A stretch of DNA of 29,913 bases from a virus (taxonomy: Duplodnaviria; Heunggongvirae; Uroviricota; Caudoviricetes), in the IMG/VR virus record IMGVR_UViG_2724678986_000028, one strand, 5' to 3'. Made by a program: the position numbers and the translations under genes. The notes beneath the pieces are model-generated. The model made no database searches, had not been told where the DNA came from, and saw nothing but the letters and a program-made list of their open reading frames with translations. How positions within the stretch are numbered: the first letter of the stretch is position 1; each line of letters starts with the position of its first letter. Positions 3,983 to 29,913 of this stretch are shown one piece after another.

Positions 3983-4068
3983 CCGCATAAATAAAACCCC
4001 AGCTTAAATAAAAAAATGTGAACACAATCTGCATTCGCAGAGGTATTCACACACACCAAGGAGGCGTA

Positions 4069-8858: not shown

Positions 8859-8862
8859 ACCA

Positions 8863-13270: not shown

Positions 13271-14107
13271 ATGGCTAATGAAAAAAAGACATCCCGCAAA
13301 AAGTTTCGCGTGGCTGTCTCCGGATCAACTGTTGATGGCCGTGAAATCAGTCCGGTGCATCTGCGTGAAGCCGCCGAGAACTTCAACCCGGATGTTTACG
13401 CTGCCCGCGTGAACGTTGAGCACTATCTCTCGCCATGCCCGTCAAGCGAATTTTCCGCAATGGGCGATGTCACCGCGCTGAGTACGGAAGATATTACGGA
13501 AGGCCCGCTGGCCGGACGTACTGCGCTGTATGCAGAAATCGAACCGACCGAGCGCATGAAGCAGCTTGTCGCTGACGGCAAGAAAATCTATTCCAGTATC
13601 GAACTGCACCCGCAGTTCTCCGTTAACGGGCGTGCCTATCTGGTCGGGCTGGCGATGACCGACACCCCGGCAAGCCTGGGCACTGAGCGCCTGAAATTCA
13701 CGGCACAGCAGCGTCAGGCGGTGATGACGTTCAACAGTATCCAGGGTGAAGCACCGCTTATCTCCGAAGCCATCGAGTCTGAAATCATCGAAATGGCAGA
13801 ACAACGCCAGGAAGAAGGCACCCAGTGGTTTAACCGCGTAATGGGGATTATTGGTCGTGGCCGCAAAGCGGATGACGCCAGTTTCTCCCGTATTCAGGAA
13901 GCGGTGGAAGGCGTTGCAACATCACAGGCCGACATTATCGACCGTTTTAATGTGCTGGAAACCCGCCATCAGCAGGACCGCCAGAAAATCACGTCACTGA
14001 CCACAGAGCTGACAGCACTGAAGGAAAAACTGCGCACGCAGGACGGCGATCCGCAGAACCGCTTCACCGCAACGGGCGCAGCCTCCGACCAGCTGGCTGA
14101 CTTCTGA
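13271..14107 (+). CDS. O: Capsid scaffolding protein, P2 gpO family
   Basis: Start at ATG 13271 (MANEKKTSRKKFRVAVSG...), with GAGGGG upstream; this N-terminus matches gpO as recalled. The ATG at 13238 in the track lacks an RBS. Confidence 0.8.
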   Translation: MANEKKTSRKKFRVAVSGSTVDGREISPVHLREAAENFNPDVYAARVNVEHYLSPCPSSEFSAMGDVTALSTEDITEGPLAGRTALYAEIEPTERMKQLVADGKKIYSSIELHPQFSVNGRAYLVGLAMTDTPASLGTERLKFTAQQRQAVMTFNSIQGEAPLISEAIESEIIEMAEQRQEEGTQWFNRVMGIIGRGRKADDASFSRIQEAVEGVATSQADIIDRFNVLETRHQQDRQKITSLTTELTALKEKLRTQDGDPQNRFTATGAASDQLADF

Positions 14108-14130
14108 TAAGACAAAGGAGCAAATTTTTT

Positions 14131-15183: not shown

Positions 15184-15228
15184 TCAACTCACGGCGGGCA
15201 TCATGCCCGCCTGTAACGGAGAGAAAAA

Positions 15229-16029
15229 ATGATTACTCCTGCACAACAACACTGGCAGAACGTGATGGCACAGCGCGCAGGCCGGGCGAATGAAGGTGTG
15301 GACCACGCCGCGTGTACCGCGCATGAAGAAGTGCTGTATCGTCTGCGTCTGGCACAGGCCAGGCTAAAGGCCATACAGGCCAGAAGCGCGAAAGCCGCCA
15401 TCAAAAAAGAGTTGTTGCCGGACTTTTCCGGCTGGATTGAGGGAACGCTGGAGGCTGACGGCGGGCAACAGGACGAAGTAATTGCCACGCTGATGGTGTG
15501 GGCGATTGACTGCGGCGATCTTCCGCTGGCGCTGCGTATTGGTGCATATGTGGTCCGTCACAACCTCATCATGCCGGATAACTTTGGCCGTACTGCTGCC
15601 ACGGTACTGACCGAAGAAATCTGCAACCCGGTACTGACGCAGGCTGGGACGGATGCCGACGCGGATTTATCCGCCTTTATCGAACCACTGGACACACTTT
15701 GGGAAATTGTCGCCAACCAGGACATTCCGGACGAAGTGCGCGCCAAATTATGCAAGGCGTGTGCCTTTGCCCGTCGTGGCCTGACCGATGCAGACAACAT
15801 GGCCTCATCACTGAAGCTGCTGCGCGAAGCGATGCACCTGAACCCGAACGCAGGTGTGAAACGCGAGATTGCAACCCTTTCCCGCGCCCTGAAAAAAGCC
15901 GATTCCGCAGCCGAACCAGAAGACGCCAGCGCACAGCAGGCGCAGGACGAAAGCAGCAAAAATAAAAAGACAACGCGGAAGCCTGCAACACGAAAAACCA
16001 CCGCGACGCAGAAGGCAAAGCGCGGTTAA
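15229..16029 (+). CDS. M: Terminase endonuclease (small) subunit, P2 gpM family
   Basis: 266 aa; N-terminus MITPAQQHW and ELLPDFSGW resemble gpM; basic C-terminal tail; GGAGAG RBS. Confidence 0.8.
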   Translation: MITPAQQHWQNVMAQRAGRANEGVDHAACTAHEEVLYRLRLAQARLKAIQARSAKAAIKKELLPDFSGWIEGTLEADGGQQDEVIATLMVWAIDCGDLPLALRIGAYVVRHNLIMPDNFGRTAATVLTEEICNPVLTQAGTDADADLSAFIEPLDTLWEIVANQDIPDEVRAKLCKACAFARRGLTDADNMASSLKLLREAMHLNPNAGVKREIATLSRALKKADSAAEPEDASAQQAQDESSKNKKTTRKPATRKTTATQKAKRG

Positions 16030-16130
16030 CGACTGACCCCGTCAGCGGGCGGCGTGCGCGGTGTTCCGGTTTGACTCCGTGACCGTTTACACCGCGCACC
16101 CACCGCCCGATTTTTTCAGGAGTGAACCCC

Positions 16131-16625
16131 ATGAGTATGGTTGCCAGAACTAACCCCGGCCCCGCAGAGGACGACATCACCGATACCGATGATGGCGACA
16201 CTCGCATTTCAGCGGGTGCATTCTGGCCGGATATTGTGCTGCGTGAGCTGCGTCTGGCGGTACGACTGCCGGGCCGCGTGACCACCTCCCGCCTGCTGCA
16301 TACCGCCACCGGGGCCATAGCACACGTTACCCGCGAGCTGGAAGCATGGCAGCAGGAACAACAGGCGGCTGGCTATCAGACGCTGGCCGATGTTCCGGCC
16401 CCTGTAATTAACGGAGAAAGCGTCAATCTCTGGCACTGGCGCAATGCTGTTTATACCGCCACACGCGCCCTGATTCTGGAGCGTTACCGCGATGCGGACA
16501 CAACGGACAAGGGCGACCGCCGGGCGGACGCACTGGATATACAGACATCGGATTTGTGGCGCGATGTGAGCTGGGCCATCTCTGACATTCTGGGACGACC
16601 GCGAATGTTTGCGGAGCTGTGCTGA
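16131..16625 (+). CDS. L: Head completion/stabilisation protein, P2 gpL family
   Basis: Start chosen at ATG 16131 (AGGAG 7 nt upstream); the track GTG at 16122 overlaps the RBS. LADVPA, ERYR and LWRD..WA blocks resemble gpL. Confidence 0.75.
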   Translation: MSMVARTNPGPAEDDITDTDDGDTRISAGAFWPDIVLRELRLAVRLPGRVTTSRLLHTATGAIAHVTRELEAWQQEQQAAGYQTLADVPAPVINGESVNLWHWRNAVYTATRALILERYRDADTTDKGDRRADALDIQTSDLWRDVSWAISDILGRPRMFAELC

Positions 16626-16825
16626 TGAAAGTGAAGGCACTGGAAGGCGACACCGTGGATTCGCTCTGTTTCCGGTACTACGGCACGACACGGGGCGTCA
16701 CCGAAAAGGTGCTGGATGCCAACCCCGGACTCTGTCAGCAGGTATTTCTGGACGCCGGGCAGGAAGTGGAGATGCCGGAGCCGGAGAAGAAGAAACGAGA
16801 AATGATTCAGTTGTGGGGGGAGTAG
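16625..16825 (+). CDS. X: Tail protein X (LysM-like), P2 gpX family
   Basis: 66 aa; ATG overlaps the L stop by 1 nt; LEGDTVDSLCFRYYG...ANPGL matches gpX as recalled. Confidence 0.7.
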   Translation: MKVKALEGDTVDSLCFRYYGTTRGVTEKVLDANPGLCQQVFLDAGQEVEMPEPEKKKREMIQLWGE

Positions 16826-16827
16826 CA

Positions 16828-17151
16828 GTGAGCACCATTCAAACAGGGATCACAGAGCAGGTTATTGCGTGGCTCTTTGACCACCTGCCAACGGTGTATG
16901 CAGTAGGCGCGGCTGTCAGCATTTCCGCGCTGATGAGTCTTTATGACGGACGAACACTGGTTCAGACCGTAACGGGATCGCTGGCGTGCGGCGTTCTTGC
17001 CATGGCCGTGGCCGGGTCGCTGCGCTTCTTCGGGATCCCTGAGGATGCAGTGACGTTTTTTGGTGCCTCAATCGGTTTTATGGGCGCAGAGAAAGCACGC
17101 GACAAGGTTATTGCAATATTTGATCGCAGGGTGAAGGAGAGGAACGAATGA
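16828..17151 (+). CDS. Holin
   Basis: 107 aa from GTG 16828 (GGGGGGAG RBS 5 nt upstream); two to three hydrophobic segments and a charged C-terminus; directly precedes the endolysin. Confidence 0.65.
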   Translation: MSTIQTGITEQVIAWLFDHLPTVYAVGAAVSISALMSLYDGRTLVQTVTGSLACGVLAMAVAGSLRFFGIPEDAVTFFGASIGFMGAEKARDKVIAIFDRRVKERNE

Positions 17152-17540
17152 GCAACACATTTAAATTCAGCAGCCGAAGCGAAAAGAATTTGCAGGGTGT
17201 AAATCCTGATCTGGTGAAAGTGACCCGACGGGCGCTGGAAATCTCGGAAGTGGATTTTGGTATCACCGAAGGATTGCGCAGTCGTTATCGTCAGAAGCAG
17301 CTCGTGACCACAGGCAAGAGCCAGACCATGAACAGTCGCCATCTCACAGGGCATGCCGTGGATGTTGTGGCTTATGTTGGCAGCCAGGTGTCATGGGAAT
17401 GGCCGCTGTACGAAAAAATCGCAGCAGCATTCAGACAGGCCAGCCGGGAACTGAATATTCCGGTGGAATGGGGCGGCGACTGGAAGACCCTGAAAGACGG
17501 ACCGCATTTTCAGTTACCACACGGAGCCTATCCGGCATGA
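17148..17540 (+). CDS. Endolysin, peptidase M15-type (L-Ala-D-Glu endopeptidase-like)
   Basis: 130 aa; zinc-ligand pattern HLTGHAVD (H-x6-D) plus a distal His (DGPHFQ) and WGGDW; AGGAGAGG RBS; ATGA overlap with the holin. Confidence 0.75.
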   Translation: MSNTFKFSSRSEKNLQGVNPDLVKVTRRALEISEVDFGITEGLRSRYRQKQLVTTGKSQTMNSRHLTGHAVDVVAYVGSQVSWEWPLYEKIAAAFRQASRELNIPVEWGGDWKTLKDGPHFQLPHGAYPA

Positions 17541-17944
17541 AGCTCTGGCCCACGCTTGGCGTCGCTTTCCTTCTGATTGCCGCATGGGGAACATCCATGC
17601 GTCTGTCGTGGTCGCTGGGCCGGGAGAACGCCAGAAACGAAGCGCAGGCCAGCACCCTGAAAAGTACCGTCGACACACTGAATATCATCAGCGCCGGGGT
17701 ACAGGATATGCAGCAGGTGCTGGCTCAACTCCGCGCGGACAATCAGCAACGCAATCAGGACGGAGAGGTAAGACGTGAACAGCTACGCAACGATATTGCA
17801 AAAGATGAATGCGCCCACGCTTTGCCTGACGCTCGTTTTACTGACAGGTTGCGCAGGCACGCAGAACGCGCCACGGCCAGCGCCGTCAGTCCGGCTTATA
17901 CCGCAGACGCTGACCATGCCGGTAACGCCTCCCCCCTTCCCTGA
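17537..17944 (+). CDS. i-spanin (LysB/Rz-like)
   Basis: 135 aa from ATG 17537 (overlaps the endolysin stop); N-terminal TM segment LWPTLGVAFLLIAAWG followed by a coiled-coil-like region. Confidence 0.65.
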   Translation: MKLWPTLGVAFLLIAAWGTSMRLSWSLGRENARNEAQASTLKSTVDTLNIISAGVQDMQQVLAQLRADNQQRNQDGEVRREQLRNDIAKDECAHALPDARFTDRLRRHAERATASAVSPAYTADADHAGNASPLP

Positions 17945-18086
17945 CCAACCCACATGGGGAAACCTCGGAATATGGGGCGACCGCCTTCTGGATGCACTGG
18001 AAACCTGTAACGCGGATAAACGGGCCATTGCTGAACTGGATAAGAGAATAGCCGAACTGACACACCAGACGGGAGTAACACAATGA
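17805..18086 (+). CDS. o-spanin lipoprotein (LysC/Rz1-like), overlapped architecture
   Basis: Starts in the +1 frame inside the i-spanin and extends beyond it; lipobox LLTGC; Pro-rich mature part. An alternative GTG start at 17775 has a GGAGAGG RBS. Confidence 0.6.
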   Translation: MNAPTLCLTLVLLTGCAGTQNAPRPAPSVRLIPQTLTMPVTPPPFPDQPTWGNLGIWGDRLLDALETCNADKRAIAELDKRIAELTHQTGVTQ

Positions 18087-19802
18087 CCAGTAAGAACTTT
18101 GCACTGATTACAGCCATGACACAGGCTGAACTGACTCAAAAGGTGAATGAACATCTTGCGAAAGGGTGGCATCTTCAGGGGGAGACGCGGGTTGCCTACG
18201 AACCCGGCACCCCGTGGTATCTAATGCAGGCAATGGTGGCCGATGGCACTACAGACATCTCACCTGATTCCCCCCAGCACGGCAGCGTGCCGGAGTGGTA
18301 TTACGTGGTGGTACTTGCTGGTCAATCCAATGCCATGTCATATGGTGAGGGAATGCCGCTGCCGGATTCTTACGATGCGCCCCACCCACGCATTAAGCAA
18401 CTGGCCCGTCGCAACACAGTGACTCCCGGTGGTAAAGCATGCGCATTTAACGACATCATTCCGGCAGATCACTGCCTGCATGATGTTCAGGATATGAGCG
18501 CACTGAATCACCCGAATGCAGACCTGAGCAAAGGGCAGTATGGCTGTGTCGGACAGGGCTTGCATATTGCCAAACGCCTGTTGCCTTACATTCCACAGAA
18601 TGCCGGGATTTTACTGGTTCCATGCTGTCGTGGTGGTTCGGCATTCACCCAGGGCGCGGAGGGGACATTCAGCGAGTCCACAGGAGCCAGTCAGGATTCG
18701 GCTCGCTGGGGTGTGGGTAAACCTTTATATCAGGACCTGATTTTGCGCACGAAGGCCGCATTGCAGAAAAACCCAAAAAACATGCTGCTGGCCGTATGCT
18801 GGATGCAGGGCGAATTTGACATGAGCGCCGCTACGTACTCACAGCAACCTCCGCTGTTTGCGGCCATGCTGAAACAGTTTCGTGCGGACATTACCGAGTT
18901 TAACACGCAGTGTCATGGAGGCAGAGCGGCAAGTGTGCCATGGATTTGTGGTGACACGACGTATTACTGGAAAAACACCTACGGCACGCAGTACGACACC
19001 ATTTACGGGGCGTACAAAAACAGGGAGAGCGACAACGTTTTCTTTGTGCCATTCCTGACCGATGGTAGTGGCAACAATACCTCCACCAACGCACCAACGG
19101 AAGATCCGGATGCTGCAAGTGAGGGATATTACGGTTCGGCATCCCGAACGAACAAAAACTGGGTATCATCAAATCGCCAGACGCATTTCAGTTCATGGGC
19201 GCGCNNNNNNNNNNNNNNNNNNNNNNNNNNNNNNNNNNNNNNNNNNNNNNNNNNNNNNNNNNNNNNNNNNNNNNNNNNNNNNNNNNNNNNNNNNNNNNNN
19301 NNNNNNNNNNNNNNNNNNNNNNNNNNNNNNNNNNNNNNNNNNNNNNNNNNNNNNNNNNNNNNNNNNNNNNNNNNNNNNNNNNNNNNNNNNNNNNNNACTG
19401 ACCAACAATCAGTTCGGTCTGGGAATTTATCTGTATACCGATGTAGCGTTACCTGACGTCGTGGCGATGACCGGGACTGGTAACCCGTTCCTGATGTCGT
19501 TCTTCACCCAGACCACAGACGGCAAACTGAATCTGATGCATCACAAGAAAGCAGGAAACACAAAGTTGGGCGAGTTCGGGAATTACAGTAACGACTGGCA
19601 GACGCTGGAGCTGGTGTTCACCGCCGGCAGTGCCACGGTTACTCCGAAACTGAATGGAGTGGCTGGCCCGGCATTCCAGGTCATAAAAGACAGTCTGACA
19701 CTGGGGCTGAATGCACTGACGCTGACGGATATTACCAAAAATGCAACGTATGGCGTTGAGATAGAAAGTCTGGTGCTGGAAATAAATAGTCCTGCAGCGT
19801 AA
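18083..19802 (+). CDS. DUF1737 + SASA/SGNH-type carbohydrate esterase (NanS-p-like), interrupted by an assembly gap
   Basis: ATG 18083 overlaps the o-spanin stop (ATGA). N-terminal MTSKNFALITAMTQAELTQKVNEHLAKGWHLQGE (DUF1737-like) is followed by VVVLAGQSNAMSYGEG (the GQSNM-type serine motif of sialate O-acetylesterase-family hydrolases). The 5' part runs 18083-19204 and the 3' part 19397-19802 in another frame, because the N run has arbitrary length. Confidence 0.6.
19205..19396. other. Assembly gap (192 N)
   Basis: Uninterrupted run of n; the true length and sequence are unknown. Confidence 0.95.
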
Positions 19803-19825
19803 GGAAGAACAGGAGAGCAAAACAG

Positions 19826-20293
19826 ATGCTTAAGACAAACAGCCTCCGGAAGGGCATGATTCATGGGTGTCGCTGGTGTCAGGCCAACCCGGAAAAATTC
19901 ACCATTTTCGTGGAGAGCGGCAACATTGAAACGACCGGAGAAACGCCCTCGTTTGTTTACCGCTATCAGATGGTGATGTTTGTCATGGATTACGCCGGGG
20001 AGCTGGACGACCTCACGCTGCCGCTACTGGCGTGGTTATCCGAAAATCAGCCGCAATTGTTGCTTAATCCGGAGCGTAATCAGGACATCAAATTCTCCGC
20101 CGTTATCAATGACGATGACAGCGCCGATCTCCTGTTTACGCTCCCTCTGCGGGAACGCGTTCGCATCACGCGCAGCAGTCAGGGGGCACCGCAGGCAGAA
20201 CACCTGCAGGAGCCAAAACCCCGTCTGCCATCTTCCGAAGGCGACTGGTCGCATGTATTCCAGGATGTGACGTGGGGTGAAAGCGATGGATAA
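19826..20293 (+). CDS. R: Tail completion protein, P2 gpR family
   Basis: 155 aa; MLK..SLR, IFV..G.I, LPLLAWL.ENQP blocks match gpR as recalled; AGGAG RBS. Confidence 0.8.
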   Translation: MLKTNSLRKGMIHGCRWCQANPEKFTIFVESGNIETTGETPSFVYRYQMVMFVMDYAGELDDLTLPLLAWLSENQPQLLLNPERNQDIKFSAVINDDDSADLLFTLPLRERVRITRSSQGAPQAEHLQEPKPRLPSSEGDWSHVFQDVTWGESDG

Positions 20294-20921
20294 GGCATTC
20301 ACCCGCGTGGATGAAACCTTTGAGGCTATCCGCGACAGCCTGAATCAGCAGGCCATCAATAACATCGCCAGAAAGCTGGCACAGGATTTATGCCGCGCCC
20401 AGCAGGCGCGTATCCGGTCACAGAAAGCGCCGGACGGGACCGCGTGGACACCACGCAGACGCCGCGTAACCCGGATACAGGAGCGCATTCGCTTTATCTG
20501 GAATAACGAAGCACGCACGCTGAAAAACTGGCATCACGACACGGGGAAATACGGGCGAACCATTACCGGGTGGGATGAGGATAAAAACAATATCCGCACG
20601 TTTTACCGGGATGACATCGACCGCTTTCTGGAAATACGCACCCGGCGCATCAACCAGGACAGCACAAAGCGCGTCCCCATGTTCGTAAAACTGCGCACCG
20701 CCCGCTACCTGAAAGCCCGTGCAGATGCTTCCGGTGTGACGGTGGGTTACAGCGGCGTGGCCGCACGTATTGCCCGCGTTCATCAGTTCGGTGAGCGCGA
20801 TCAGGTTGCGCCGGGCATTTTCACCGATTACCCGGTACGTGAGCTGTTGGGCATCAGTCAGGCAGATGAACGCCTGATTTATAACACGGTGCTGGGCCGG
20901 ATTGCGGAGGCTGTACGGTGA
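20286..20921 (+). CDS. S: Tail completion / virion morphogenesis protein, P2 gpS family
   Basis: 211 aa from ATG 20286 (an alternative GTG lies at 20277); overlaps R by 8 nt; sits in the gpS position before V. Confidence 0.7.
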   Translation: MDKAFTRVDETFEAIRDSLNQQAINNIARKLAQDLCRAQQARIRSQKAPDGTAWTPRRRRVTRIQERIRFIWNNEARTLKNWHHDTGKYGRTITGWDEDKNNIRTFYRDDIDRFLEIRTRRINQDSTKRVPMFVKLRTARYLKARADASGVTVGYSGVAARIARVHQFGERDQVAPGIFTDYPVRELLGISQADERLIYNTVLGRIAEAVR

Positions 20922-21499
20922 GCGCAGAACTCATGCGACTGCTGAGCAACATCATCCGCACTGGGATCATCTCTGAAGTTGATGAGAAGTCCTGGTGCGT
21001 GCGCGTTCGCAGCGGCGAACTGGAAACAGGCTGGTTGCGCTGGAACACCACGCGCGCGGGAGCCTTCAATGTGTGGCTGCCGCCATCACCCGGCGAACAG
21101 GTGGTAATTGCCTGCATTGGCGGCAACCCGGAAACCGCCATGATAATTGGCAGCCTGTGGAGTGATGCCAATCCGGCCCCCGGCAAAAGCCTGAAAGAAA
21201 TCGTGGTCAGCGCGCCGGATGGCGCGGTGTTCCGCTACGACGCGGACGCAGGCGCACTGAGCGCCAGCGGCATGAAAACGGCCACCCTGCAGGCATCCGT
21301 CAGTGTGACACTGGACACGCCCGTCGTGGAATGCACAGACCTTCTGAGAACGGCGACGCTTGACGTCACAAAAGGGGGAAAGATGAGCGGCAATATCACG
21401 CACAGCGGCGGCAATTTCACCTCAAACGGCATCACAGTGCATACGCATAAACACGGTGGCGTTAAAGGTGGCAGCGATTCGACAGGAGGCCCGCAGTGA
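20918..21499 (+). CDS. V: Baseplate spike, P2 gpV family
   Basis: GTG 20918 overlaps the S stop; IRTGII, W..RAG, GEQV, HTGG.F.SNG..HTHKH blocks match gpV as recalled. Confidence 0.8.
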   Translation: MSAELMRLLSNIIRTGIISEVDEKSWCVRVRSGELETGWLRWNTTRAGAFNVWLPPSPGEQVVIACIGGNPETAMIIGSLWSDANPAPGKSLKEIVVSAPDGAVFRYDADAGALSASGMKTATLQASVSVTLDTPVVECTDLLRTATLDVTKGGKMSGNITHSGGNFTSNGITVHTHKHGGVKGGSDSTGGPQ

Positions 21500-21846
21500 C
21501 AACCCGCTACACAGGAATGAACCCGGACGGAACGGGAAACCTGAACGATATGGAGCATCTGAAACAGTCAGTCAGGGACATCCTGACCACCCCGCTGGCA
21601 AGCCGGGTTATGCGACGGGAATATGGCAGCCTTGTGCCCGATTTAATTGACGAACCCATGAATAACACCACTCGTCTGCAATGCATGAGTGCTGCCGTGA
21701 TTGCGCTGACACGATGGGAACCCCGCATTGCCCTGGACGCCATCGACGTTGTCTGGAAGGCAGGAGGCCGCGCCGGGGTGACGCTGTCGGGCACTGTCAT
21801 GCAGACCATGCAGAATGTTGAATTAACCATCACGCTGAGGGAGTAA
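21496..21846 (+). CDS. W: Baseplate wedge protein, P2 gpW family
   Basis: GTG start overlapping the V stop; N-terminus MTTRYTGMN vs P2 MTARYLGMN; SRVMRREYGSL block. Confidence 0.8.
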   Translation: MTTRYTGMNPDGTGNLNDMEHLKQSVRDILTTPLASRVMRREYGSLVPDLIDEPMNNTTRLQCMSAAVIALTRWEPRIALDAIDVVWKAGGRAGVTLSGTVMQTMQNVELTITLRE

Positions 21847-21849
21847 ATC

Positions 21850-22746
21850 ATGCCTGCCGTTGACCTTTCCCAGTTACCGGAACCCGCCATCATCGCGGAG
21901 CCTGACTTTGAGGCAATTCTGGCTGACACAAAGGCCATGATGATTGCGTCCTATCCTGCCGAACAGCGTGAAGCCGTCTCCGCCGCGCTGGAGCTGGAAT
22001 CGGAACCCCTGAACGTTATCGCCCAGACAACAGCGTTTCGTGAAATGCTGTTACGCCAGCGGGTCAATGAGGGGGCACGCGCCTGCATGTTAAGCCACAG
22101 CGCCGGGACAGACCTGGACAACCTCGCGGGCAATATGAACACAAAGCGCCTGACCATCACTCCGGCAACGGATACCACCGACGCAGTGATGGAAAGTGAC
22201 ACCTCGCTGAGACTGCGGGCGCAGCGGGCGTACGATGGCCTGAGTGTTGCTGGCCCGTCAGGTGCATACGAGTATTTTGCCCGCAGCGCCAGCGGTCTGG
22301 TGCGTGATGCGCGGGCTATCAGTCCGTCTCCGGCAAATGTGACGGTTTCCATCCTGTCCACTGAAGGCGACGGCACAGCAACGGAGGCGTTGCTTAATAC
22401 CGTTCGCGCCGTTCTGAATGCAGAGGATACCCGCCCGGTGGCCGACCGCCTGACGGTACAGAGCGCCAGAATCGTGACATGGCGGCTGAATGCAAAACTG
22501 TACTTTTACCCCGGCCCGGAATCCGAACCTATTCTGGCGGCGGCTGAATCGTCGTTCAGGAAGTGGCTGGCTGAGCAGGGGCTTATCGGTCAGGACGTGG
22601 CGTTGTCCGCCATTGCTGCCGCACTGCATGTGCACGGTGTGCAACGCGTGGAGATAATCGAACCCACACAGAATATGGCCATCAGCGACATACAGGCGGC
22701 GCGCTGTGAGTCGTTCACCATCAGCGAAGGTGGGCGCAATGAGTAA
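21850..22746 (+). CDS. J: Baseplate protein, P2 gpJ family
   Basis: 298 aa; position and size match gpJ. Confidence 0.85.
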   Translation: MPAVDLSQLPEPAIIAEPDFEAILADTKAMMIASYPAEQREAVSAALELESEPLNVIAQTTAFREMLLRQRVNEGARACMLSHSAGTDLDNLAGNMNTKRLTITPATDTTDAVMESDTSLRLRAQRAYDGLSVAGPSGAYEYFARSASGLVRDARAISPSPANVTVSILSTEGDGTATEALLNTVRAVLNAEDTRPVADRLTVQSARIVTWRLNAKLYFYPGPESEPILAAAESSFRKWLAEQGLIGQDVALSAIAAALHVHGVQRVEIIEPTQNMAISDIQAARCESFTISEGGRNE

Positions 22747-23269
22747 TTCACTGTTACCACCATCAGCCAGCAGTTTCATGCGTTGTGCCGAAGCTGTCGG
22801 AACGCGCATTACAGACATCCCGGTAGACCTCAACACGCTGTGGTCGCCGGACACCTGCCCGGTGCACCTGCTGCCTTATCTCGCCTGGGCATTTTCCGTT
22901 GACCGCTGGGATCGCAACTGGCCGGAAGAGACAAAACGACAGGTGATTCGTGATGCATGGCTGATACACCGACACAAAGGGACCATCAGCGCACTGCGCA
23001 GGGCCATTGAGCCGCTGGGATACCTCATTCGCGTGTCTGAGTGGTGGGAGTTCGGCGGAGAACCGGGAACATTTACCGTTGAAGTCGGCACACTGGACAG
23101 TGGCGTGACGGAGGAAATGTATCTGGAAATGGAGCGGTTGATTGCTGATGCCCGTCCGGTCAGCCGCCACATGACAGGGCTGAATATCATTCAGGAAATT
23201 CCGGGGGATATTTTTGCAGCGGCGGCAACTCATGACGGTGAAGTTATTACCATTTATCCGGACGATTAA
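22739..23269 (+). CDS. I: Baseplate protein, P2 gpI family
   Basis: 176 aa from ATG 22739 (overlaps J by 8 nt); [21 protein letters not shown] and [12 protein letters not shown] blocks match gpI as recalled. Confidence 0.8.
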
Positions 23270-23271
23270 GC

Positions 23272-25404
23272 ATGAGTACCACAACACGAAAATTTAAAAC
23301 CGTTATCACCGATACAGGTGCCAAAAAATTAGCTCAGGCAGCCGCGCCAGATGGTAAGCCTGTCCGCCTGACTCATATGGCCGTGGGCGACGGTGGCGGC
23401 GCGTTGCCCACACCAGACAGTAAGCAGACCCGTCTGGTGCATGAGGTGTGGCGACACACTGTTAATCGCGTCATCCTGGACGCAACACATCAGAACCGCA
23501 TTATTGCGGAGCTGGTTATTCCTCCAGAAACGGGCGGATTCTGGATCCGGGAAATTGGTGTGTTTGATGAGCACGGCGATTTAATCGCGGTGGGCAATAC
23601 TGCCGAAAGTTACAAGCCAGCCGTTGCCGAAGGGTCCGGACGTGCACAAACATTTCGCACCATTCTGACCGTATCCAGCACTGCCACTGTGGCGCTTACC
23701 GTGGATAACACCATGGTGATGGCCACAGTGGATTACGTGGATAACAAACTGAAAGAGCATGAACAGTCACGATGTCACCCGGATGCCTCGCTGACCGCAA
23801 AAGGCTTTGTTCAACTCAGTAGCGCCACTAACAGCGATTCTGAAACGCTGGCTGCAACGCCGAAAGCGGTTAAGGTCGCGTATGATCTTGCTAACGGAAA
23901 ATATACAGCGCAGGATGCCACAACAGCGCGAAAAGGCCTTGTCCAGCTTAGTAGTGCAACCAACAGTACATCTGAAACGCTGGCGGCAACATCAAATGCA
24001 GTAAAAGCTGCCTATGACAATGCTGAAAAACGTCTGCAGAAAGCTAAGAATGGTGAGGATATCTCTGATAAAGACACCTTTACGAAAAATATCGGTGCCT
24101 GCCGTGCATATAGTGCAGAGCTGAATATTGGTGGAGATAGTGAAGCATGGACAACTGCGCAGTTGATTTTTTGGCTAGAGAGTCAGGGGGCATTTAACCA
24201 TCCTTACTGGATGTGCAAAGGCTCATGGGCTTATGCAAATAATAAGGTCATTACAGATACAGGTTGCGGAAGTATTTGTCTTGCAGGTGCTGTTGTGGAA
24301 GTTATTGGCACCCGCGGCGCAATGACCATACGCATTACCACACCGAGTACATCCAGCGGTGAAGGCATCCCTAATGCTCAATTTACTTATATTAATCATG
24401 GTGATGCTTATGCTCCTGGCTGGCGAAGGGACTATAACTCCAGGAATAAGCCAACAGCATCAGAGATCGGGGCGTTACCGTCAGATGGGACAGCAGTATC
24501 GTCAGTTAATCTGGCTTCAAAAGGTCGGCTGACCGCCCTGACAGATAATATGCAGGGGGCCACAGGTCTGGAGTTATACGAGGCGTATAACAACGGATAT
24601 CCAACAACGTATGGAAATATCATTCACCTGAAAGGGATGACAGCCGTTGGCGAAGGCGAATTACTCATCGGCTGGAGTGGTATAAGCGGTGCTCATGCTC
24701 CGGCATTTATTCGTTCACGACGGGATACGACCGACGCAAACTGGTCGCCGTGGGCGCAGCTTTACACCTCGGCTCATCCTCCTGAAGAGTTTTATCCAGT
24801 CGGTGCACCGATTCCGTGGCCATCAGATACCGTTCCGTCTGGTTATGCCCTGATGCAGGGGCAGACTTTTGACAAATCTGCATACCCGAAACTTGCAGTC
24901 GCTTATCCGTCAGGCGTTATTCCTGATATGCGTGGCTGGACGATTAAGGGCAAGCCCGGCAGTGGTCGTGCCGTATTGTCTCAGGAACAGGACGGCATTA
25001 AATCGCACACCCACAGCGCCAGCGCATCCAGTACGGATTTGGGGACGAAAACCACATCGTCGTTTGATTACGGTACTAAAACGACCAGTTCATTTGATTA
25101 CGGCACAAAAACTACGAATAGCGCTGGAAATCATTCACACAATATACCTGTTGGTCACACTGGCGCGGGGAATGGTGTATCAGCCGGTTATAACGCTGCG
25201 TTAGGTACTGGTACCACGTCGAGCGCAGGCGAGCATGCTCACAATGTATATATCGGTGCCCATAACCACACTATCGGCATTGGTGCTCATGCCCATTCTG
25301 TCATTATTGGTCCCCACGGACACACCATCACCGTTAACGCTACGGGTAACGAAGAAAACACCGTAAAAAACATCGCATTTAACTATATTGTGAGGCTTGC
25401 ATAA
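23272..25404 (+). CDS. H: Tail fibre protein, P2 gpH-like N-terminus with a mosaic C-terminal receptor-binding region
   Basis: 710 aa; conserved N-terminal about 150 aa; two phage-fibre repeats ([25 protein letters not shown]); [10 protein letters not shown] tandem repeats; His-rich HxH run ([31 protein letters not shown]). Confidence 0.85.
25042..25122 (+). repeat. Tandem 30-nt (10-aa [10 protein letters not shown]) repeats inside the tail fibre gene
   Basis: Units at 25042-25071 and 25072-25101, with a partial third unit; copies differ at synonymous positions. Confidence 0.6.
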
Positions 25405-25982
25405 TGACATTCAGAATGAGTGAACACTCACGGACCATAAAAATTTATAATCTACTGACCGGAACCAATGAGTTTATTGGTGAAGGTGATGCATACATTC
25501 CACCTCATACAGGTCTGCCTGCAAACAGTACCGATATTGCCCCGCCAGATATTCCGGCTGGCTTCGTGGCCGTTTTCAACAGTGATGAGGCATCGTGGCA
25601 TCTCGTTGAAGACCATCGGGGTAAAACGGTTTATGACGTGGCATCAGGGGACTCGTTATTTATTTCTGAACTCGGTCCATTACCGGAAAATGTTACCTGG
25701 TTGTCGCCGTATGGAGAGTATCAGAAGTGGAACGGCACATCCTGGGTGAAAGATGCAGAAGCAGAAAAACTGTTTCGGATAAGGGAGGCGGAAGAAACAA
25801 AAAACAGCCTGATGCAGGTAGCCAGCGAGCATATTGCGCCACTTCAGGATGCCGTAGATTTGGATATTGCAACGGAGGAAGAGGCATCGTTACTGGCTGC
25901 ATGGAAGACATACCGGGTATTGTTGAATCGTGTTAATACAGCGGTAGCAGCGGATGTTGAGTGGCCAGTCGCCCCACAATAA
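25404..25982 (+). CDS. Tail fibre assembly chaperone (gpG/Tfa family)
   Basis: 192 aa; ATGA overlap with H; C-terminal [22 protein letters not shown]...WP is typical of Tfa-family chaperones. Confidence 0.8.
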
Positions 25983-26018
25983 AGAGAAAAAGCCATCGAT
26001 TGAAATATAGATGGCTTT
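25983..26018 (-). terminator. Intrinsic terminator-like hairpin at the convergent junction, oriented for the minus-strand gene
   Basis: Perfect 9-bp stem AAAGCCATC(25989-25997)/GATGGCTTT(26010-26018) with a 12-nt loop; on the minus strand it is followed by a T-rich tract (plus-strand A-run 25981-25988). Sits between the Tfa stop and the acetyltransferase stop. Confidence 0.5.
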
Positions 26019-26025
26019 ATGTACT

Positions 26026-26598
26026 CTATTTATACAATACAACACCGCTCTTTTTAGTTATATATGTGCAGTTCGATGGTATATCTTTATTTATAAAAGA
26101 CATTGCACCTATTTTTACATTATCCCCAATTTTACGTGATAATCCAATGATGCAACAATTAGCTCCGATATCAACGTTACTACCAATTTTTACTCTTGAA
26201 CCAGGCATGTCACCATCTATCTGTCCAATGGTAGTATTCTGTCGTAACACCAGATTTTCACCAGCATCAACAGCAAAATGAACAACAATTCCAGCATGAT
26301 GGGGAATTGTTAACCCTTTTCCAATATTTGCGCCCAATCCAATTTCACAACCAAATTTGTTAATTATTTTACTGTTTAACTTTTTGGCTGCTTTCTTATG
26401 TAATTTATTACCATTAATATACATTTCGTTAGCCAACCGCCACCAGAAAAGGAAATTCCGGTTACGCTGTTTTTTCTCTCTTAAAAGCCTCCAGATATCC
26501 ATACGTTTCCGCCGAATTACTTCATATTTCCAGAAGTTTTTTAAATTAGTAGAGTCCCCAAATAAAACAAAGTGAATTGCCATTAAGTAAGACAGCAC
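26026..26598 (-). CDS. Hexapeptide-repeat (left-handed beta-helix) acetyltransferase, serine-acetyltransferase-like; candidate polysaccharide O-acetyltransferase (cargo)
   Basis: Start chosen at GTG 26598 (AAGGAG 7 nt upstream); an alternative ATG lies at 26583 and the track start at 26631. Hexapeptide repeats VKIGSNVDIGANCCIIGLSRKIGDNVKIGAMSFI and a SAT-like GLTIPHHAGIVV block. The region is strongly AT-rich compared with the backbone. Confidence 0.7.
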   Translation of the reverse strand: MLSYLMAIHFVLFGDSTNLKNFWKYEVIRRKRMDIWRLLREKKQRNRNFLFWWRLANEMYINGNKLHKKAAKKLNSKIINKFGCEIGLGANIGKGLTIPHHAGIVVHFAVDAGENLVLRQNTTIGQIDGDMPGSRVKIGSNVDIGANCCIIGLSRKIGDNVKIGAMSFINKDIPSNCTYITKKSGVVLYK

Positions 26599-26754
26599 GA
26601 TAATCTCCTTAATTATTATTTCAGACCACACATATTATAAGGTTAAGAGATTATAAAATCCTGTTGTTTGTTATTCAAAAACAATTTTCTGAGAAGGACA
26701 TACAACAGCAAGTCGCCAGTCACCTTCATCAGGAAATTGGCGACATACGTTAAA

Positions 26755-27243
26755 TCAGAGCAGCCCCTTAACTGAGCTGGTCGCGCTATTAAGGGATGAT
26801 GTCACCTTATCTTTGAAGCCGGACAACATATCGCTGAACGATGAGGATTGCAGGCGCTCCCGCAAATCCTCATCACAGCGTTCAAGAGTCAGTGAAAATT
26901 CTATCTTTTTCGCCTTACCGTAGCGATCAAACTCGGAGCGGGTCGTATTCGTTTCGGTCAGGACATACATGCCGTAAATCTGCCCGACGCCATCAATCAG
27001 AGGCCAGGGCCGTCCTGTATACGCCTGCGTGGTCAGCAGAGACAGCGACACTTCGCCACCTGTAATTTCAGGATAAAGCACACCAGAAAGAACGATGCGA
27101 TCATCACCTGCACCGATATACTGCCAGCTTGCTGAACGGTTAACGCGTTCATTTTTCACATGCCGCCAGCTTTTGTTTTGCTGTAACTGCTGATGCGGCA
27201 GCGTGCGCAGCTCAAAAACAAACATGCCATAGATCATCATCAT
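26755..27243 (-). CDS. U: Tail protein, P2 gpU-like
   Basis: Start taken at the third Met (MMMIYGMFVFEL), which has a GAGGAG RBS at correct spacing. Lies immediately downstream of the tape measure gene on the same strand, as T-U in P2. Family call is from recalled resemblance. Confidence 0.55.
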   Translation of the reverse strand: MMMIYGMFVFELRTLPHQQLQQNKSWRHVKNERVNRSASWQYIGAGDDRIVLSGVLYPEITGGEVSLSLLTTQAYTGRPWPLIDGVGQIYGMYVLTETNTTRSEFDRYGKAKKIEFSLTLERCDEDLRERLQSSSFSDMLSGFKDKVTSSLNSATSSVKGLL

Positions 27244-27255
27244 GGCCATGACTCC

Positions 27256-29913
27256 TCAATCTTTATCGTAAAAACTGCCACGCCCGGCACGGGCGCGCCG
27301 TTCCATTTCTGCCCTGACCATTTCACCGACCAGTTTCGCCAGTTCGCGGGGATTCTGCGTAACAACGTTATGCAGATGAACATGAATTTCACCGCCAAAT
27401 CTGGAGACAGCAGGCTCCCGATTACGGGAAGCTGCAGGAACTGATGCCACTGGCGATCGTATGGCCTCCGCCACCGGGCGGGAGCTGGCCGCAACAACAG
27501 GGACCAGCGCCGGAGGCAGCGGAGCCGGGACTACGGGTGTGATATTAATTGCGGGGGCAGGCTTACTGACCTGCGCAATCTTCCGCTCCTGCCACTCCCC
27601 ACGAACAGCAAGTGCGCGGGGCAGGTTCTTAAAGACAATATCGCCAGGGCCAATGCGTTTTTTCGTCTCATCAACCAGCTTACCTGTGTTATCAGCAATT
27701 TTGCTGAGTCTGCGTAGCGTCCCGGTATTGCTGTCTGTGAGCGGTTTGTTGTCTTTGGGTTTATCACCTCCGGTGCCATTGCCATTTTCCACAGGCTTCG
27801 GCGGATTGATTTTCGCCAGGTCCCCCTGAAGTAAGGCAACCTTATCCTGAAGAATGGCCGCACGCTGTGCGTCTTCGATTTTCTTGCGCGCCCTTTCCGC
27901 TTCATCCGGAAGGACGCCAAGTTTTTCAAGTATCCACGCCAGCGTATCCAGTAGCATTTTTGCAGGTGTCAGAACAAGTTGTAACGCACCGCCAAGAACG
28001 TTACCGAATATCTCGCCAGCACTGGTACATTTATCCAGCGTTTCCTTGCTGGACTCCATCGGTGACAGCAGCGATTTAAACCAGTTAAACACCTGGCTGA
28101 TCCCGCTTCCGATTGCGTCAAAAACAGGGCCAAACCGTTCAAAGGTTTCACGCAACGGGTTCAGCCTTTCCATAATCCCGCTGAACACCCCGGCAAAAAA
28201 TGCCCTGATGGGATCCCAGTATTTCCAGATAAGGACGGCAGCTCCGGCAAGCGCAGCCACGATAAGACCAACCGGACTGAACAGCGCCCCGATAGCGCCT
28301 CCCAGTAAAGAAACGGAACCCGTCACCATTCCCCATAGTGCTGGCAGGACCCTGACAGCATTCATTGATCCGGTCAGGAGAGAAAAACCAAGACGCAGTT
28401 TTGCCAGCGGACCAGCAAGCACACCAATAGCCAGCGACAACGAGCCAACCGTTGCAGTCATTGCCAGCAACGCACCGCCTGCTATCAGTAGCTGGCGCGT
28501 CAGTGCCGGATGGGCCTGCGCCAGCGCCGTCACCCTTGATACCACCCGCGTGAGCCACTGCGTGACAGAACGCAGCGGACCGTCAATCAGATCTGCAATG
28601 CGGATGCGCAACCCTTCCCATGCACTGCCGAGTGATTTCAGATCGCCGTCAAGGTTGTTGGCCATAACCTTTGCTGTGCGTTCAGCCTCACCGCGCGCGC
28701 CTTCAAGTTCTTTTCTCAGTTTGGGTAAGGAACCGTCACCCACTGCATCAACGAGCGCCATAAACGATGTGAAAGCCTCTTCTCCGGCAATGTCCTTAAA
28801 GAACGATACCCGGTCAACTTCCCCGTATTTGCGGGTGGCTTTATAAAGGTCGGCCAGCACATCCTCCATCGGGCGCATTTTACCCCCGGCATCCGAGACG
28901 GACACGCCCAGCTCTTTCAGAGCTTCTGCCGCCGCCTTTGGCGGTGATGCCAGACGAGCCAGGCTGGCACGCATTGCCGTCCCGGCATCACTCCCTCTGA
29001 TGCCCATATTCGCCAGCACACCAGCCATCGCTGCGGCCTGCTCCAGCGATATTCCCAGCTTACCCGCCACCGGACCTGCATATTTCATGGTTTCGCCCAG
29101 TGCGCGAAGGTCAGTGTTGGTACGGGTAAACGCTGCGGTGAGTGTGTCACCGACCCGGTCCATCTGGTCAGCAGAAAGGCCGAACTGCGTCAGGATATTT
29201 GAGCCAATATCTGCCGTCTCGCCGAGATCCATACCGCCAGCCGTTGCCATGCTCAGCACTCCGGGAAGCGCAGCCTGAATGGCCTGCGGTGTGAAGCCTG
29301 CCATTGCAAGAAATGCCTGCCCACTGGCGGCATCGCCTGCGGTGAACTGCGTTTCAGAGCCAAGTTTTAACGCCTGCTCACGCAGCGCCTTAAACTGCGG
29401 GCTGTTCTGGTCGATTCGCGTCAGCGCCTGAACGCGGGACATCTCTTTGCCGAACCCGATCGCGGGCTGCAAAAAACGCCCGGCAGCATAGCCGCCCGCC
29501 GCTGCCGCACCAATTGCCAGCGCACCACCTGTTTTCAGTTTTCCCGCGGTTTCCTGCGCGCGCGAATACCACTCACGCGCCCGCGTTACACGCGCAAGCG
29601 CCTGCCGTTCGCGTTCAAGCTGGTTGTTGTACTGTTCGGTGCGTCTGATGGCCTGCTGGATGGTGTTATCGCTGCCTGTCAGGGAAATGCCGTGGCGTTT
29701 CAGCTCTCCGCCAAGCTCCCGCATTTTCTGAATTTCCCGTGTGCGCGATTCATTCAGGCGTTCAAGCCGGGTGCTTAACTGCTGCATCAGCTTTTGTTGT
29801 TTTTCGCTGAGCACTGTACCCGTGCGTTGTAACTGATTAAGGGCGTTAAGCTGGCGTCGTGCTTTCACGATACCCGCATCCGCTTTACTGACAGCGTCGC
29901 GGGCGCGCTCAAA
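27256..29913 (-). CDS. T: Tail tape measure protein (gpT-like), 5' end beyond the window
   Basis: Reading frame is open to the window edge (the track start at 29868 is an internal GTG). Long helical, Ala/Gly-rich protein with hydrophobic central segments typical of tape measure proteins. Confidence 0.75.
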   Translation of the reverse strand, partial: FERARDAVSKADAGIVKARRQLNALNQLQRTGTVLSEKQQKLMQQLSTRLERLNESRTREIQKMRELGGELKRHGISLTGSDNTIQQAIRRTEQYNNQLERERQALARVTRAREWYSRAQETAGKLKTGGALAIGAAAAGGYAAGRFLQPAIGFGKEMSRVQALTRIDQNSPQFKALREQALKLGSETQFTAGDAASGQAFLAMAGFTPQAIQAALPGVLSMATAGGMDLGETADIGSNILTQFGLSADQMDRVGDTLTAAFTRTNTDLRALGETMKYAGPVAGKLGISLEQAAAMAGVLANMGIRGSDAGTAMRASLARLASPPKAAAEALKELGVSVSDAGGKMRPMEDVLADLYKATRKYGEVDRVSFFKDIAGEEAFTSFMALVDAVGDGSLPKLRKELEGARGEAERTAKVMANNLDGDLKSLGSAWEGLRIRIADLIDGPLRSVTQWLTRVVSRVTALAQAHPALTRQLLIAGGALLAMTATVGSLSLAIGVLAGPLAKLRLGFSLLTGSMNAVRVLPALWGMVTGSVSLLGGAIGALFSPVGLIVAALAGAAVLIWKYWDPIRAFFAGVFSGIMERLNPLRETFERFGPVFDAIGSGISQVFNWFKSLLSPMESSKETLDKCTSAGEIFGNVLGGALQLVLTPAKMLLDTLAWILEKLGVLPDEAERARKKIEDAQRAAILQDKVALLQGDLAKINPPKPVENGNGTGGDKPKDNKPLTDSNTGTLRRLSKIADNTGKLVDETKKRIGPGDIVFKNLPRALAVRGEWQERKIAQVSKPAPAINITPVVPAPLPPALVPVVAASSRPVAEAIRSPVASVPAASRNREPAVSRFGGEIHVHLHNVVTQNPRELAKLVGEMVRAEMERRARAGRGSFYDKD

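Follow-up and report, generated by a model that had tools for sequence, protein, structure and literature searches.

The gene in the gpH position of this prophage raises the question of where a fibre with a P2-type beginning obtained its receptor-binding end. The original prediction, made from the letters of the DNA, held that the gene joins a P2-type N-terminus to a T-even-like, histidine-rich distal tip through horizontal exchange, and that the tip sets host range. The window, that is, the whole stretch of 29,913 nucleotides that was analysed, was examined with these claims in mind. We conclude, with a probability of roughly 0.88, that the gene encodes the host-recognition fibre of a P88-like prophage, recombined from at least four modules and ending in a tip of the gp37/Stf type.

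The fibre gene (23272..25404, + strand) is complete, an uninterrupted open reading frame of 710 codons for amino acids, and lies directly after gpI in the gene order V-W-J-I-H-G, with neighbours that give Pfam matches to P2 I (Tail_P2_I) and P2 J (Baseplate_J). The prophage itself is complete from integrase to ogr. Its backbone is 95-98% identical in nucleotide sequence to that of P88 (type Xuanwuvirus) on either side of the fibre end, with 23001-24024 matching P88 H at 95% and the DNA from 26749 onward matching P88 gpU at 98%. The element that carries the gene is P88-like (Xuanwuvirus, Peduoviridae) and resides as a prophage in non-O157 Shiga-toxin E. coli. Homologues number more than 3800 at E <= 1e-5. 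The identical 710-residue protein occurs in at least 1000 contigs of a public collection, and the tip variant is present in 214 of 5426 complete E. coli genomes, at 209 chromosomal and 64 plasmid places. A search of NCBIfam returned no family matching the fibre or its downstream chaperone, Tfa.

Residues 1-172 (23272..23787, + strand) make up a baseplate-attachment domain of the P2/P88 type (PF12571, residues 6-153, E 6.9e-54). In blastp searches against reference proteins, residues 7-254 are 72% identical to residues 4-251 of P2 gpH and 94% identical to P88 H, in agreement with the predicted P2-type N-terminus. The extent of this identity, together with the gpH position of the gene, is what one would see if the fibre were a canonical P2 gpH-type protein throughout, its histidine-rich end being a lineage-specific elaboration and not an import. 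An end-to-end alignment with P2 gpH, which the original prediction had named as the observation that could overturn it, stops at residue 254: P2 H residues 252-669, the entire receptor-binding part, give no blastp alignment beyond that point at E <= 1e-3, and the HxH motif is absent from P2 H. Moreover, the tip matches the T4 gp37 structure 2XGF at E 8e-78, and identities of 85-95% link the DNA to lambdoid and P1-like fibres, which leaves a P2 gpH-type fibre throughout with a negligible probability.

Next to the N-terminal domain lie two PF03406 fibre repeats (residues 173-249; 23788..24018, + strand; Pfam twice, E 2.7e-39), found in frame just where they had been predicted, at 23788-23886 (residues 173-205) and 23920-24018 (residues 217-249). 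The two share 24 of 33 residues and 67 of 99 bases, and a repeat search recovers them as one family (94 nt at 73%). PF03406 repeats also occur in lambdoid Stf proteins, and a three-way alignment, in which the fibre gene is P88-like to about column 195 and like PhiR26_1 Stf from about column 221, places the crossover from P88-type to Stf-type DNA inside repeat 2, at ~23965-23995. The horizontal exchange that had been proposed is directly visible in the DNA. Positions 23809-25080 are 86% identical to the lambdoid PhiR26_1 Stf gene, 24047-24438 are 88% identical, in frame, to an alternate fibre segment of P88, Mu and JL22, and a 1.8-kb block at 24793-26590, spanning the tip, Tfa and an acetyltransferase gene, is 94.8% identical to Punavirus Ro157c2YLVW and 94.2% identical to JL22. 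The predicted compositional shift along the fibre gene and tfa is real but modest, G+C falling from ~0.55 in the late genes and 0.54 in fibre residues 1-172 to 0.49-0.50 in the remaining fibre and 0.48 in tfa.

The junction within the repeats also bears on whether the gene is intact. PGAP/RefSeq annotation of identical DNA (NZ_CP159877) gives a pseudogene fragment and a CDS of 284 amino acids, and in Citrobacter phage phiNP the corresponding tip is encoded as a stand-alone protein of 282 residues; both would suit a broken or split gene consisting of a dead N-terminal piece (to residue 238) and a separate 284-residue receptor-binding protein starting at M427. Against this, the reading frame is open across all 2133 nt, the 188 codons between the annotated pieces contain no stop (chance ~1e-4), ~24047-24438 within the gap aligns in frame, at 88% identity, with fibre segments that are functional in Mu and P88, and the full 710-residue protein is called in other genomes, across the same contigs counted above. 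The 'pseudogene' ends at residue 238, exactly on the recombination junction, as is expected if reference-protein-driven annotation fails on a mosaic. A split gene is quite improbable, and the RefSeq pseudogene call on this intact gene is misleading.

Beyond the repeats, residues 249-408 (24016..24495, + strand) form a shaft domain of the Mu S' (gp52) type, matching PDB 8ju3 at E 3.3e-95 overall and with an i-Evalue of 4.8e-81 for this stretch. Variable residues 12-168 of Mu S' are 79% identical to the fibre; the shaft part alone matches, and the receptor-binding C-terminal domain of Mu S' is absent. The shaft DNA has 88% identity to fibre segments that P88, Mu and JL22 carry as alternates on the minus strand, and the alternate fibre protein of P88 likewise matches residues 249-408. 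In P88 and Mu (S/S' gp49/gp52; 5YVQ/8JU3) the segment that holds the fibre end is invertible and is accompanied by an invertase, whereas here the Stf-type end is fixed and is followed by Tfa and the acetyltransferase. The possibility that the tip belongs to an actively inverting host-range switch of the Gin/Cin/Pin type, such as Mu, P1 and P88 possess, draws on the homology of residues 249-408 to the Mu G(-) fibre, on the invertible segment and invertase that P88, the closest prophage type, has at the same position, and on the adjacency of the JL22 tip to cin. However, a gix pattern, AAACCNNGGTTT, which detects the pair of sites in Mu as well as that in P88, has 0 matches across the window when up to 1 mismatch is allowed, and among the 26-mers of 23001-27000 the best gix match reaches 16 of 26 positions. 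Neither the invertase nor the alternate Tfa of P88 gave a tblastn match in the window, and the alternate fibre protein of P88 has its matches solely within the + strand fibre gene (24211-24471), with no opposite-strand copy. A fossil or active invertible segment is refuted for the fibre locus by this lack of gix-like site, invertase, alternate fibre and alternate Tfa, and the chance that the tip is being switched is vanishingly small.

The shaft is followed by a recurrent conserved fibre module (residues ~409-506; 24496..24789, + strand), which matches PHROG tail-fibre families 6722, 22609, 37852 and 3299 (E ~1e-43, the position differing by profile) and is nearly invariant across homologues. 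An AF2 model of residues 401-510 suggests a small beta domain, at a weak pLDDT of 59.5, and a Foldseek search of the PDB with this weak model returned nothing below E = 1.

Residues 507-710 are 66% identical to the sequence seen in the crystal structure of the gp37 tip of T4 (2XGF, 2xgf_A; E 8.3e-78) and 65% identical to lambda orf314. The match to 2XGF takes in the last 204 residues, or the last 29% of the protein, so that a T-even-like tip stands at that length and not over the distal two-thirds of the fibre. The fibre shares with T4 gp37 a collar-needle-head organisation and a chaperone gene (gp38 in T4) immediately downstream, but differs in that gp37 is a 1026-residue distal half-fibre and the tip here sits on a 710-residue P2-type fibre. 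In the same way, the label 'T-even-like' fits the fold family and not the donor: judged by sequence identity, the immediate relatives of the tip are the fibres of temperate phages (lambdoid Stf, 86%; P1-like, 95% nt). Had a T-even (T4-like) lytic phage been the direct donor of the tip, the 66% amino acid identity of the tip to gp37 and the register of the HxH motifs would be accounted for. Yet the DNA of the tip region is just 69-72% identical to T4, in two short stretches alone, where the corresponding figures are 84-89% for lambda, 86-88% for PhiR26_1 and 95% for P1-like phages, in blocks that extend over Tfa and the acetyltransferase as well; the identity of Tfa is 88% with its lambda counterpart and 29% with T4 gp38; and a 2.7-unit GTKTT array in the needle is present in lambda and phiNP and not in T4. 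Direct T-even origin was ruled out on DNA identity, and we hold it to be very improbable.

PhiR26_1 Stf is collinear with residues ~180-603 and 666-710 and with Tfa at 86-88% nucleotide identity. Similarity to lambdoid Stf stops at 25080, the boundary between copies 1 and 2 of the GTKTT unit, and the lambdoid head region is unlike that of the fibre between 25080 and 25267. The lambdoid Stf proteins (Ur-lambda, PhiR26_1, mEp460) are anchored by a siphovirus-tail-binding Stf collar in place of the P2/P88-type N-terminus found here, and lambda Stf has 8 HxH motifs and a needle and head 43 residues longer than those of the fibre. The fibres of JL22 and vB_EcoM-Ro157c2YLVW, which are 949-1006 residues long and have P1-type N-termini, are 96-97% identical to the fibre in amino acid sequence from residue 508, head included; in JL22 the neighbours of the shared block are the cin invertase gene and an alternative fibre/Tfa pair (S, U) in inverted orientation.

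The tip begins with a collar domain (residues 507-578; 24790..25005, + strand), where PF07484, with a cut-off of 24 bits, is matched at residues 511-558 with a score of 43.5, and which is 83% identical to T4 gp37 and ~100% conserved among homologues. A putative ascending needle strand follows (residues 579-623; 25006..25140, + strand), with HxH at residues 579 and 621, and a putative descending strand with the conserved C-terminus (25234..25404 including the stop codon, + strand) has HxH at residues 655, 664, 673 and 682; the C-terminus is 92% identical to T4 and again ~100% conserved among homologues. The HxH-rich run that had been likened to the gp37 tip spans residues 655-685 (25234-25326) and holds the last four motifs, with a period of 9 residues. 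Six HxH in the whole protein, compared with 0.85 expected, were reached in 1 of 20000 whole-protein shuffles and in 0 of 20000 for residues 560-710. The chemistry of HxH-bound iron and the seven Fe sites of gp37 have been described (PMC6116203, PMC6957217). In the alignment, the six motifs fall in register with T4 H883, H929, H966, H980, H989 and H998, six of these seven sites, the four of the run pairing with H966, H980, H989 and H998, which favours the likeness to T4. The T4 H915/H917 site is absent from the fibre, and an extra GTKTT unit stands in its place.

The tandem units at 25042-25122 (27 residues) comprise two full 10-residue units and a partial third. The codon differences between the full copies that had been predicted amount to 8 of 30 bases, all synonymous, and include a serine switch from TCG to AGT. 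Copy 1 equals that of lambda at 30 of 30 bases, whereas P1-like phages share copy 2, which has diverged in lambda and is missing from T4. A recent, gene-specific duplication was rejected on these grounds, both copies being identical in P1-like phages and a diverged copy 2 being found in lambda, phiNP and Chuche; from these sequence comparisons, the codon-divergent repeat is inherited.

Between the two strands lies a variable head of 31 residues (residues 624-654; 25141..25233, + strand), the predicted receptor-contact region. It is 29% identical to T4 residues 932-965, while its flanks are 83-92% identical, and no other stretch is conserved so little among homologues (45-50%). The head corresponds to the T4 specificity region (PMC9659904, PMC6957217), and the function-critical T4 residues N937, G938, G943 and S947 are altered or deleted in it. 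The proposal that the distal region sets host range is narrowed accordingly to specificity residing in this predicted head. Since the head is only 29% identical, the receptor of T4 cannot be assumed for the fibre. The fibre has the defining properties of the 'T4- and lambda-based RBP family' of Magaziner & Salmond 2022 (PMC9659904), which includes phiNP ORF6: a conserved last ~215 residues, a divergent specificity insert of 30-70 residues and an adjoining gp38/Tfa-like gene. The phiNP tip is 76% identical, likewise has 6 HxH and 2.7 GTKTT units, and is encoded with an acetyltransferase adjoining tfa, but ORF6 is a separate protein with a head sequence unrelated to that of the fibre, and its LPS GlcII receptor cannot be transferred to the fibre. 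By analogy with T4, Ur-lambda and phiNP, the receptor is probably OmpC and/or a sugar of the LPS core; the family and its receptors have been described (PMC9659904, PMC12617516).

Tfa, the tail-fibre assembly chaperone cognate to the tip (25404..25982, + strand; PF02413, E 1.2e-39), overlaps the stop codon of the fibre gene. Its N-terminal part resembles lambda Tfa and gp38 alone, and its C-terminal 66 residues alone resemble P2 G and Mu U, a division in agreement with a published model (PMC9608196) in which the N-domain is variable and binds the fibre and the C-domain is conserved and brings about trimerisation. The likeness of the locus to P2 gpH/gpG is confined to the N-terminal 250 residues (PF12571 and PF03406), the gene order and this C-terminal third of the chaperone.

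Downstream, on the opposite strand, is an A+T-rich moron encoding a hexapeptide acetyltransferase (26026..26598, - strand; G+C 0.34), which lies within the shared block at 24793-26590 and whose NCBIfam matches, to EpsC, CysE and WcaB, are all under the curated cut-offs. The convergent arrangement of fibre and Tfa facing an acetyltransferase, with a gp37/Stf-type tip, was found in five phages of three backgrounds: the Xuanwuvirus prophage studied here, JL22, Ro157c2YLVW, phiNP and 613R2. In a Salmonella Infantis prophage the acetyltransferase is farther downstream on the same strand, and Hafnia phage yong2 combines the convergent layout with a tip of an unrelated kind. Acetyltransferases from outside the shared block show identities of only 37-57%, so that a single block shared recently does not by itself account for the linkage. 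It could be that tip, Tfa and acetyltransferase are a co-moving functional triad, in which the enzyme acetylates the LPS or polysaccharide recognised by the fibre; we consider this unlikely. If true, the lysogen would be shielded from superinfection and progeny would not be lost on cell debris.

The modules suggest how a fibre recombined in this manner would work. By homology, the P2/P88-type N-terminus would dock the trimer to the baseplate; the two PF03406 repeats, which hold the crossover, as the DNA shows, would lead into the Mu S'-type shaft domain and the further conserved module, and these into the C-terminal collar-needle-head tip, a homologue of the tips of T4 gp37 and lambda Stf. If the crystal structure of gp37 is taken as a guide, three chains would ascend and then descend to form a needle of six strands, every one of the six HxH would contribute three histidine pairs to an octahedral Fe(II) site, and the 31-residue head at the turn would contact the receptor. 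We infer both trimerisation and iron binding from homology. An AF2 monomer model of residues 390-710 has a mean pLDDT of 34, a low value that is attributed to the tip being expected as an intertwined trimer. Tfa may nucleate folding of the trimer from the C-terminal end, and the block of tip, Tfa and acetyltransferase was probably exchanged recently with P1-like phage-plasmids.

Mosaicism of this kind is well documented and ordinary in phage fibres, the receptor-binding protein family is already published (PMC9659904), and no concept is altered by the finding. It offers a worked example, at base-pair resolution, of how a lambda/T4-type tip came into a P2-family prophage from O26/O103/O111 Shiga-toxin E. 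coli, with the crossover in a shared fibre repeat and with a block of tip, chaperone and moron that is also carried on P1-like phage-plasmids of the same pathotype. The junctions and domain boundaries provide candidate splice points at residues ~232-240 and ~507 and at the head flanks, ~600 and ~666, which may be usable for engineered fibres, pyocins and lambda-Stf delivery particles against non-O157 STEC.

The fibre gene (23272-25404, +; 710 aa) lies directly 3' of gpI and is followed directly by the gene for the tail-fibre assembly chaperone, Tfa (25404-25982, +). The original prediction described the fibre as a P2-type N-terminus joined by horizontal exchange to a T-even-like, His-rich distal tip with codon-divergent repeats, and all of the features it listed were found in the correct reading frame and at more than chance level. 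The pair of fibre repeats (aa 173-205 and aa 217-249) share 24 of 33 residues and 67 of 99 bases, and both match Pfam PF03406. The stretch at 25042-25122 consists of two full copies of a ten-residue GTKTT unit followed by GTKTTNS; 8 of 30 bases differ between the full copies, without any amino-acid change. The His-rich run (aa 655-685) carries four HxH motifs at 9-residue spacing, and two further motifs lie at aa 579 and aa 621, giving six in the fibre versus 0.85 expected, a number reached in 1 of 20000 shuffles of the whole protein and in 0 of 20000 shuffles of aa 560-710. G+C content is about 0.55 in the late genes and drops to 0.48-0.50 at the repeats and beyond.

Comparison with reference proteins resolved the fibre into successive modules. 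The P2/P88-type N-terminus (aa 7-254) aligns to residues 4-251 of P2 gpH at 72% and to P88 H at 94%. The fibre is not an end-to-end counterpart of P2 gpH, since the alignment stops at aa 254 and nothing beyond that residue aligns with gpH in this comparison. A Mu S'-type shaft (aa 249-408) matches the solved-structure sequence of Mu gp52 (S', the G(-) fibre; PDB 8JU3; E 3.3e-95) in its shaft part only, leaving the receptor-binding end of gp52 unmatched. The strongly conserved module that follows (aa ~409-506) is found again in several PHROG tail-fibre families, at a place that differs between them; neither Pfam nor PDB gave a match to it, and no fold neighbour was found for its weak AF2 model. 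The remainder (aa 507-710) is a gp37/Stf-type tip, containing a Pfam collar domain (aa 511-558) and matching the T4 gp37 tip (PDB 2XGF; E 8.3e-78) and lambda orf314, the C-terminal part of Stf (65%).

The predicted exchange is borne out at the DNA level, where comparing 23001-27300 with nine reference loci by local blastn produced a sharp mosaic of best matches. Positions 23001-24024 match P88 H (95% nt), 24047-24438 the minus-strand alternate fibre segments of P88, Mu and JL22 (88%), 23809-25080 and 25267-25966 the Stf and Tfa genes of lambdoid PhiR26_1 (86-88%), 24793-26590 the P1-like phages Ro157c2YLVW and JL22 (94-95%), and 26749 onward P88 gpU (98%); T4 aligned over only two short stretches, at 69-72%. 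In a three-way alignment the crossover from P88 to Stf sequence falls within the second PF03406 repeat, at ~23965-23995 (aa ~232-240), which argues that these repeats are the shared homology by which the distal fibre, of siphovirus type, is joined to a myovirus anchor. The P1-like block comprises the tip from aa 508, Tfa and a convergent acetyltransferase gene. At the corresponding place P88 carries a ~3-kb invertible segment with gix-like flanking sites and an invertase, whereas no gix-like site, invertase or alternate fibre/Tfa pair is present in the window; the P88-type invertible switch has been replaced here by a fixed Stf-type end.

In the identical DNA of NZ_CP159877.1 (strain 12867; 3363611-3365743, or 23273-25405 of its extracted locus), RefSeq/PGAP splits the intact 710-aa ORF into a pseudogene fragment labelled 'phage tail protein', which reaches aa 238, and a 284-aa CDS starting at M427. 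The pseudogene ends at the P88/Stf recombination junction, and elsewhere this protein is annotated with a length of 551 aa or 710 aa.

That the T4 gp37 and lambda Stf ends are homologous, and gp38 and Tfa likewise, has been known for a long time, and so has the mosaicism of P2, Mu and P1 fibres; these observations are reportedly those of Haggard-Ljungquist et al. in 1992, Sandmeier in 1994 and Hendrix and Duda in 1992. The exact 710-aa protein occurs on at least 1000 public contigs, P2-like phages of the same architecture (Chuche, STYP1, SEN1, P24A7b) are in GenBank, and tip homologues exceed 3800 at E <= 1e-5. The tip family has been formalised with >200 members, already including P2-like Salmonella phages such as SEN5 (PMC9659904), and the mirror-image chimera, a lambda Stf N-terminus with a P2 tip, has been engineered (PMC11338833). 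The window fibre is thus a further member of an already known kind.

Nor is the divergence of the GTKTT copies a peculiarity of this gene, as both are shared with other phages. Copy 1 is the same as the lambda and PhiR26_1 copies at 30 of 30 bases, and copy 2 is the same in P1-like phages at 29-30 of 30; copy 2 is diverged in lambda (GTKTTGSFDY), phiNP and Chuche and missing from T4 and PhiR26_1. This distribution indicates that the duplication is old and family-wide. The boundary between the copies, 25080, is the end of the conserved flank, where lambdoid Stf similarity stops; the codon divergence marks the edge of an exchangeable cassette encoding the head (aa 624-654), the predicted receptor-contact part at the turn of the needle.

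The T-even element of the prediction held for the tip, which matches T4 gp37, and not for the HxH motifs as a T-even hallmark. Seven irons in gp37 are each octahedrally coordinated by an HxH pair from three chains, and R-pyocin fibres and the P2 gpV spike use this chemistry too (PMC6957217, PMC6116203), making it a general trimeric-fibre device. The fibre motifs at aa 579, 621, 655, 664, 673 and 682 align with T4 H883, H929, H966, H980, H989 and H998, while an extra ten-residue unit stands in place of the H915 site; lambda has eight motifs and P2 gpH none. Identity to T4 is 83% in the collar, 71% in the ascending needle, 29% in the head, 57% in the descending needle and 92% at the C-terminus. 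Of the residues that the T4 tip needs to function, H929, H931, I933, G940, G942 and Y949 are kept, and N937, G938, G943 and S947 are changed or deleted. The receptors of characterised members of the family are OmpC (T4, Ur-lambda), OmpF (TuIa) or LPS core GlcII (phiNP) (PMC9659904, PMC12617516). On these alignments the tip scaffold is conserved relative to T4, but T4's receptor cannot be assumed for the window fibre.

By homology, the fibre would be a trimer fastened to the baseplate by its P2-type N-terminus, its C-terminal chains ascending and then descending a six-stranded needle that as many as six Fe(II) sites staple together, with the 31-residue head touching the receptor; binding would be relayed to the baseplate to trigger sheath contraction, as in the generic P2-/Mu-type tail model (PMC6116203). 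Tfa shares 88% identity with lambda Tfa and 29% with T4 gp38, and its resemblance to P2 G and Mu U is confined to the last 66 residues. This fits a published model with two domains, in which the N-domain binds the fibre and is variable and the C-domain trimerises and is conserved (PMC9608196).

Convergent with tfa lies the acetyltransferase gene (26026-26598, -; 34% G+C), encoding a CysE/WcaB/EpsC-like hexapeptide enzyme whose NCBIfam matches all fall under curated cut-offs. Its position, between G and FI, is the classic P2 'moron position 2' (PMC3573123). Hexapeptide acetyltransferases recur beside Tfa genes in several unrelated phages: homologues convergent with a Tfa gene occur in JL22, Ro157c2YLVW, phiNP, 613R2 and Hafnia yong2, with 91-97% identity in P1-like phages and 37-57% outside the shared block, and in a Salmonella Infantis prophage the enzyme is on the same strand, two genes 3' of the fibre. 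Homologues map to 6236-6712 (L010), 6231-6803 (L008), 1281-1835 (L011), 283-846 (L015), 4043-4588 (L013) and 4106-4582 (L012) of the compared phage loci. Most phages with this neighbour bear gp37/Stf-type tips, and the enzyme may be a receptor-masking lysogenic-conversion gene; the phiNP receptor-binding protein paper does not mention the acetyltransferase next to tfa (PMC9659904).

Within the window is a P2-family prophage, nearly complete, with phage P88 (type Xuanwuvirus, Peduoviridae) its closest named relative. In strain 12867 the element spans integrase to ogr and adjoins tRNA-Leu/Cys/Gly, pgsA and uvrC. Window and P88 have in common an unusual arrangement, with V-W-J-I-H-G and FI-FII-E-T-U on opposite strands, unlike P2, where these blocks are all transcribed in one direction. 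Because P88 is arranged likewise, the opposite-strand block of sheath, tube, E/E', tape-measure and gpU genes (26755-29868, -, and beyond; 26756-32331 in the 12867 locus, 14039-18762 in the P88 locus) is a genus trait rather than a local rearrangement. A DUF6645 protein gene (18083-19802, +; 17926-19803 in the 12867 locus, 625 aa) is inserted between the genes for lysis and the tail-completion gene R, within ~1.8 kb (18031-19867) mostly without counterpart in P88. In the window it forms two ORFs in different frames (18083-19456 and 19062-19802), 192 nt (19205-19396) standing in for 350 nt of strain 12867, a difference of 158 nt; no tandem repeat is present at the replacement site. P2 'moron position 1', between the replication and portal genes, is taken by ParM-like and partitioning/stability genes (7899-9174, +; the matching RefSeq record has the annotation "plasmid segregation protein ParM"), cargo that an integrated prophage does not usually carry.

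Many Shiga-toxin E. coli, O103, O111:H11 and O26-type strains among them, have chromosomes that match positions 20000-29913 at 100% identity, and at least 80% of this stretch is covered in 239 of 5426 complete genomes. The head variant (25072-25300, at least 96% nt), at up to three copies in some genomes, resides both chromosomally in P2-like prophages and on plasmids, presumably P1-like phage-plasmids (72-102 kb among the records listed). It is 96-97% identical to the tip head of Ro157c2YLVW and JL22 and 214 of the 5426 complete E. coli genomes have it, at 209 chromosomal and 64 plasmid places, the genomes listed being mostly O26, O111, O103 and related STEC. These results suggest that exchange between P2-like prophages and P1-like phage-plasmids is ongoing within one pathotype.
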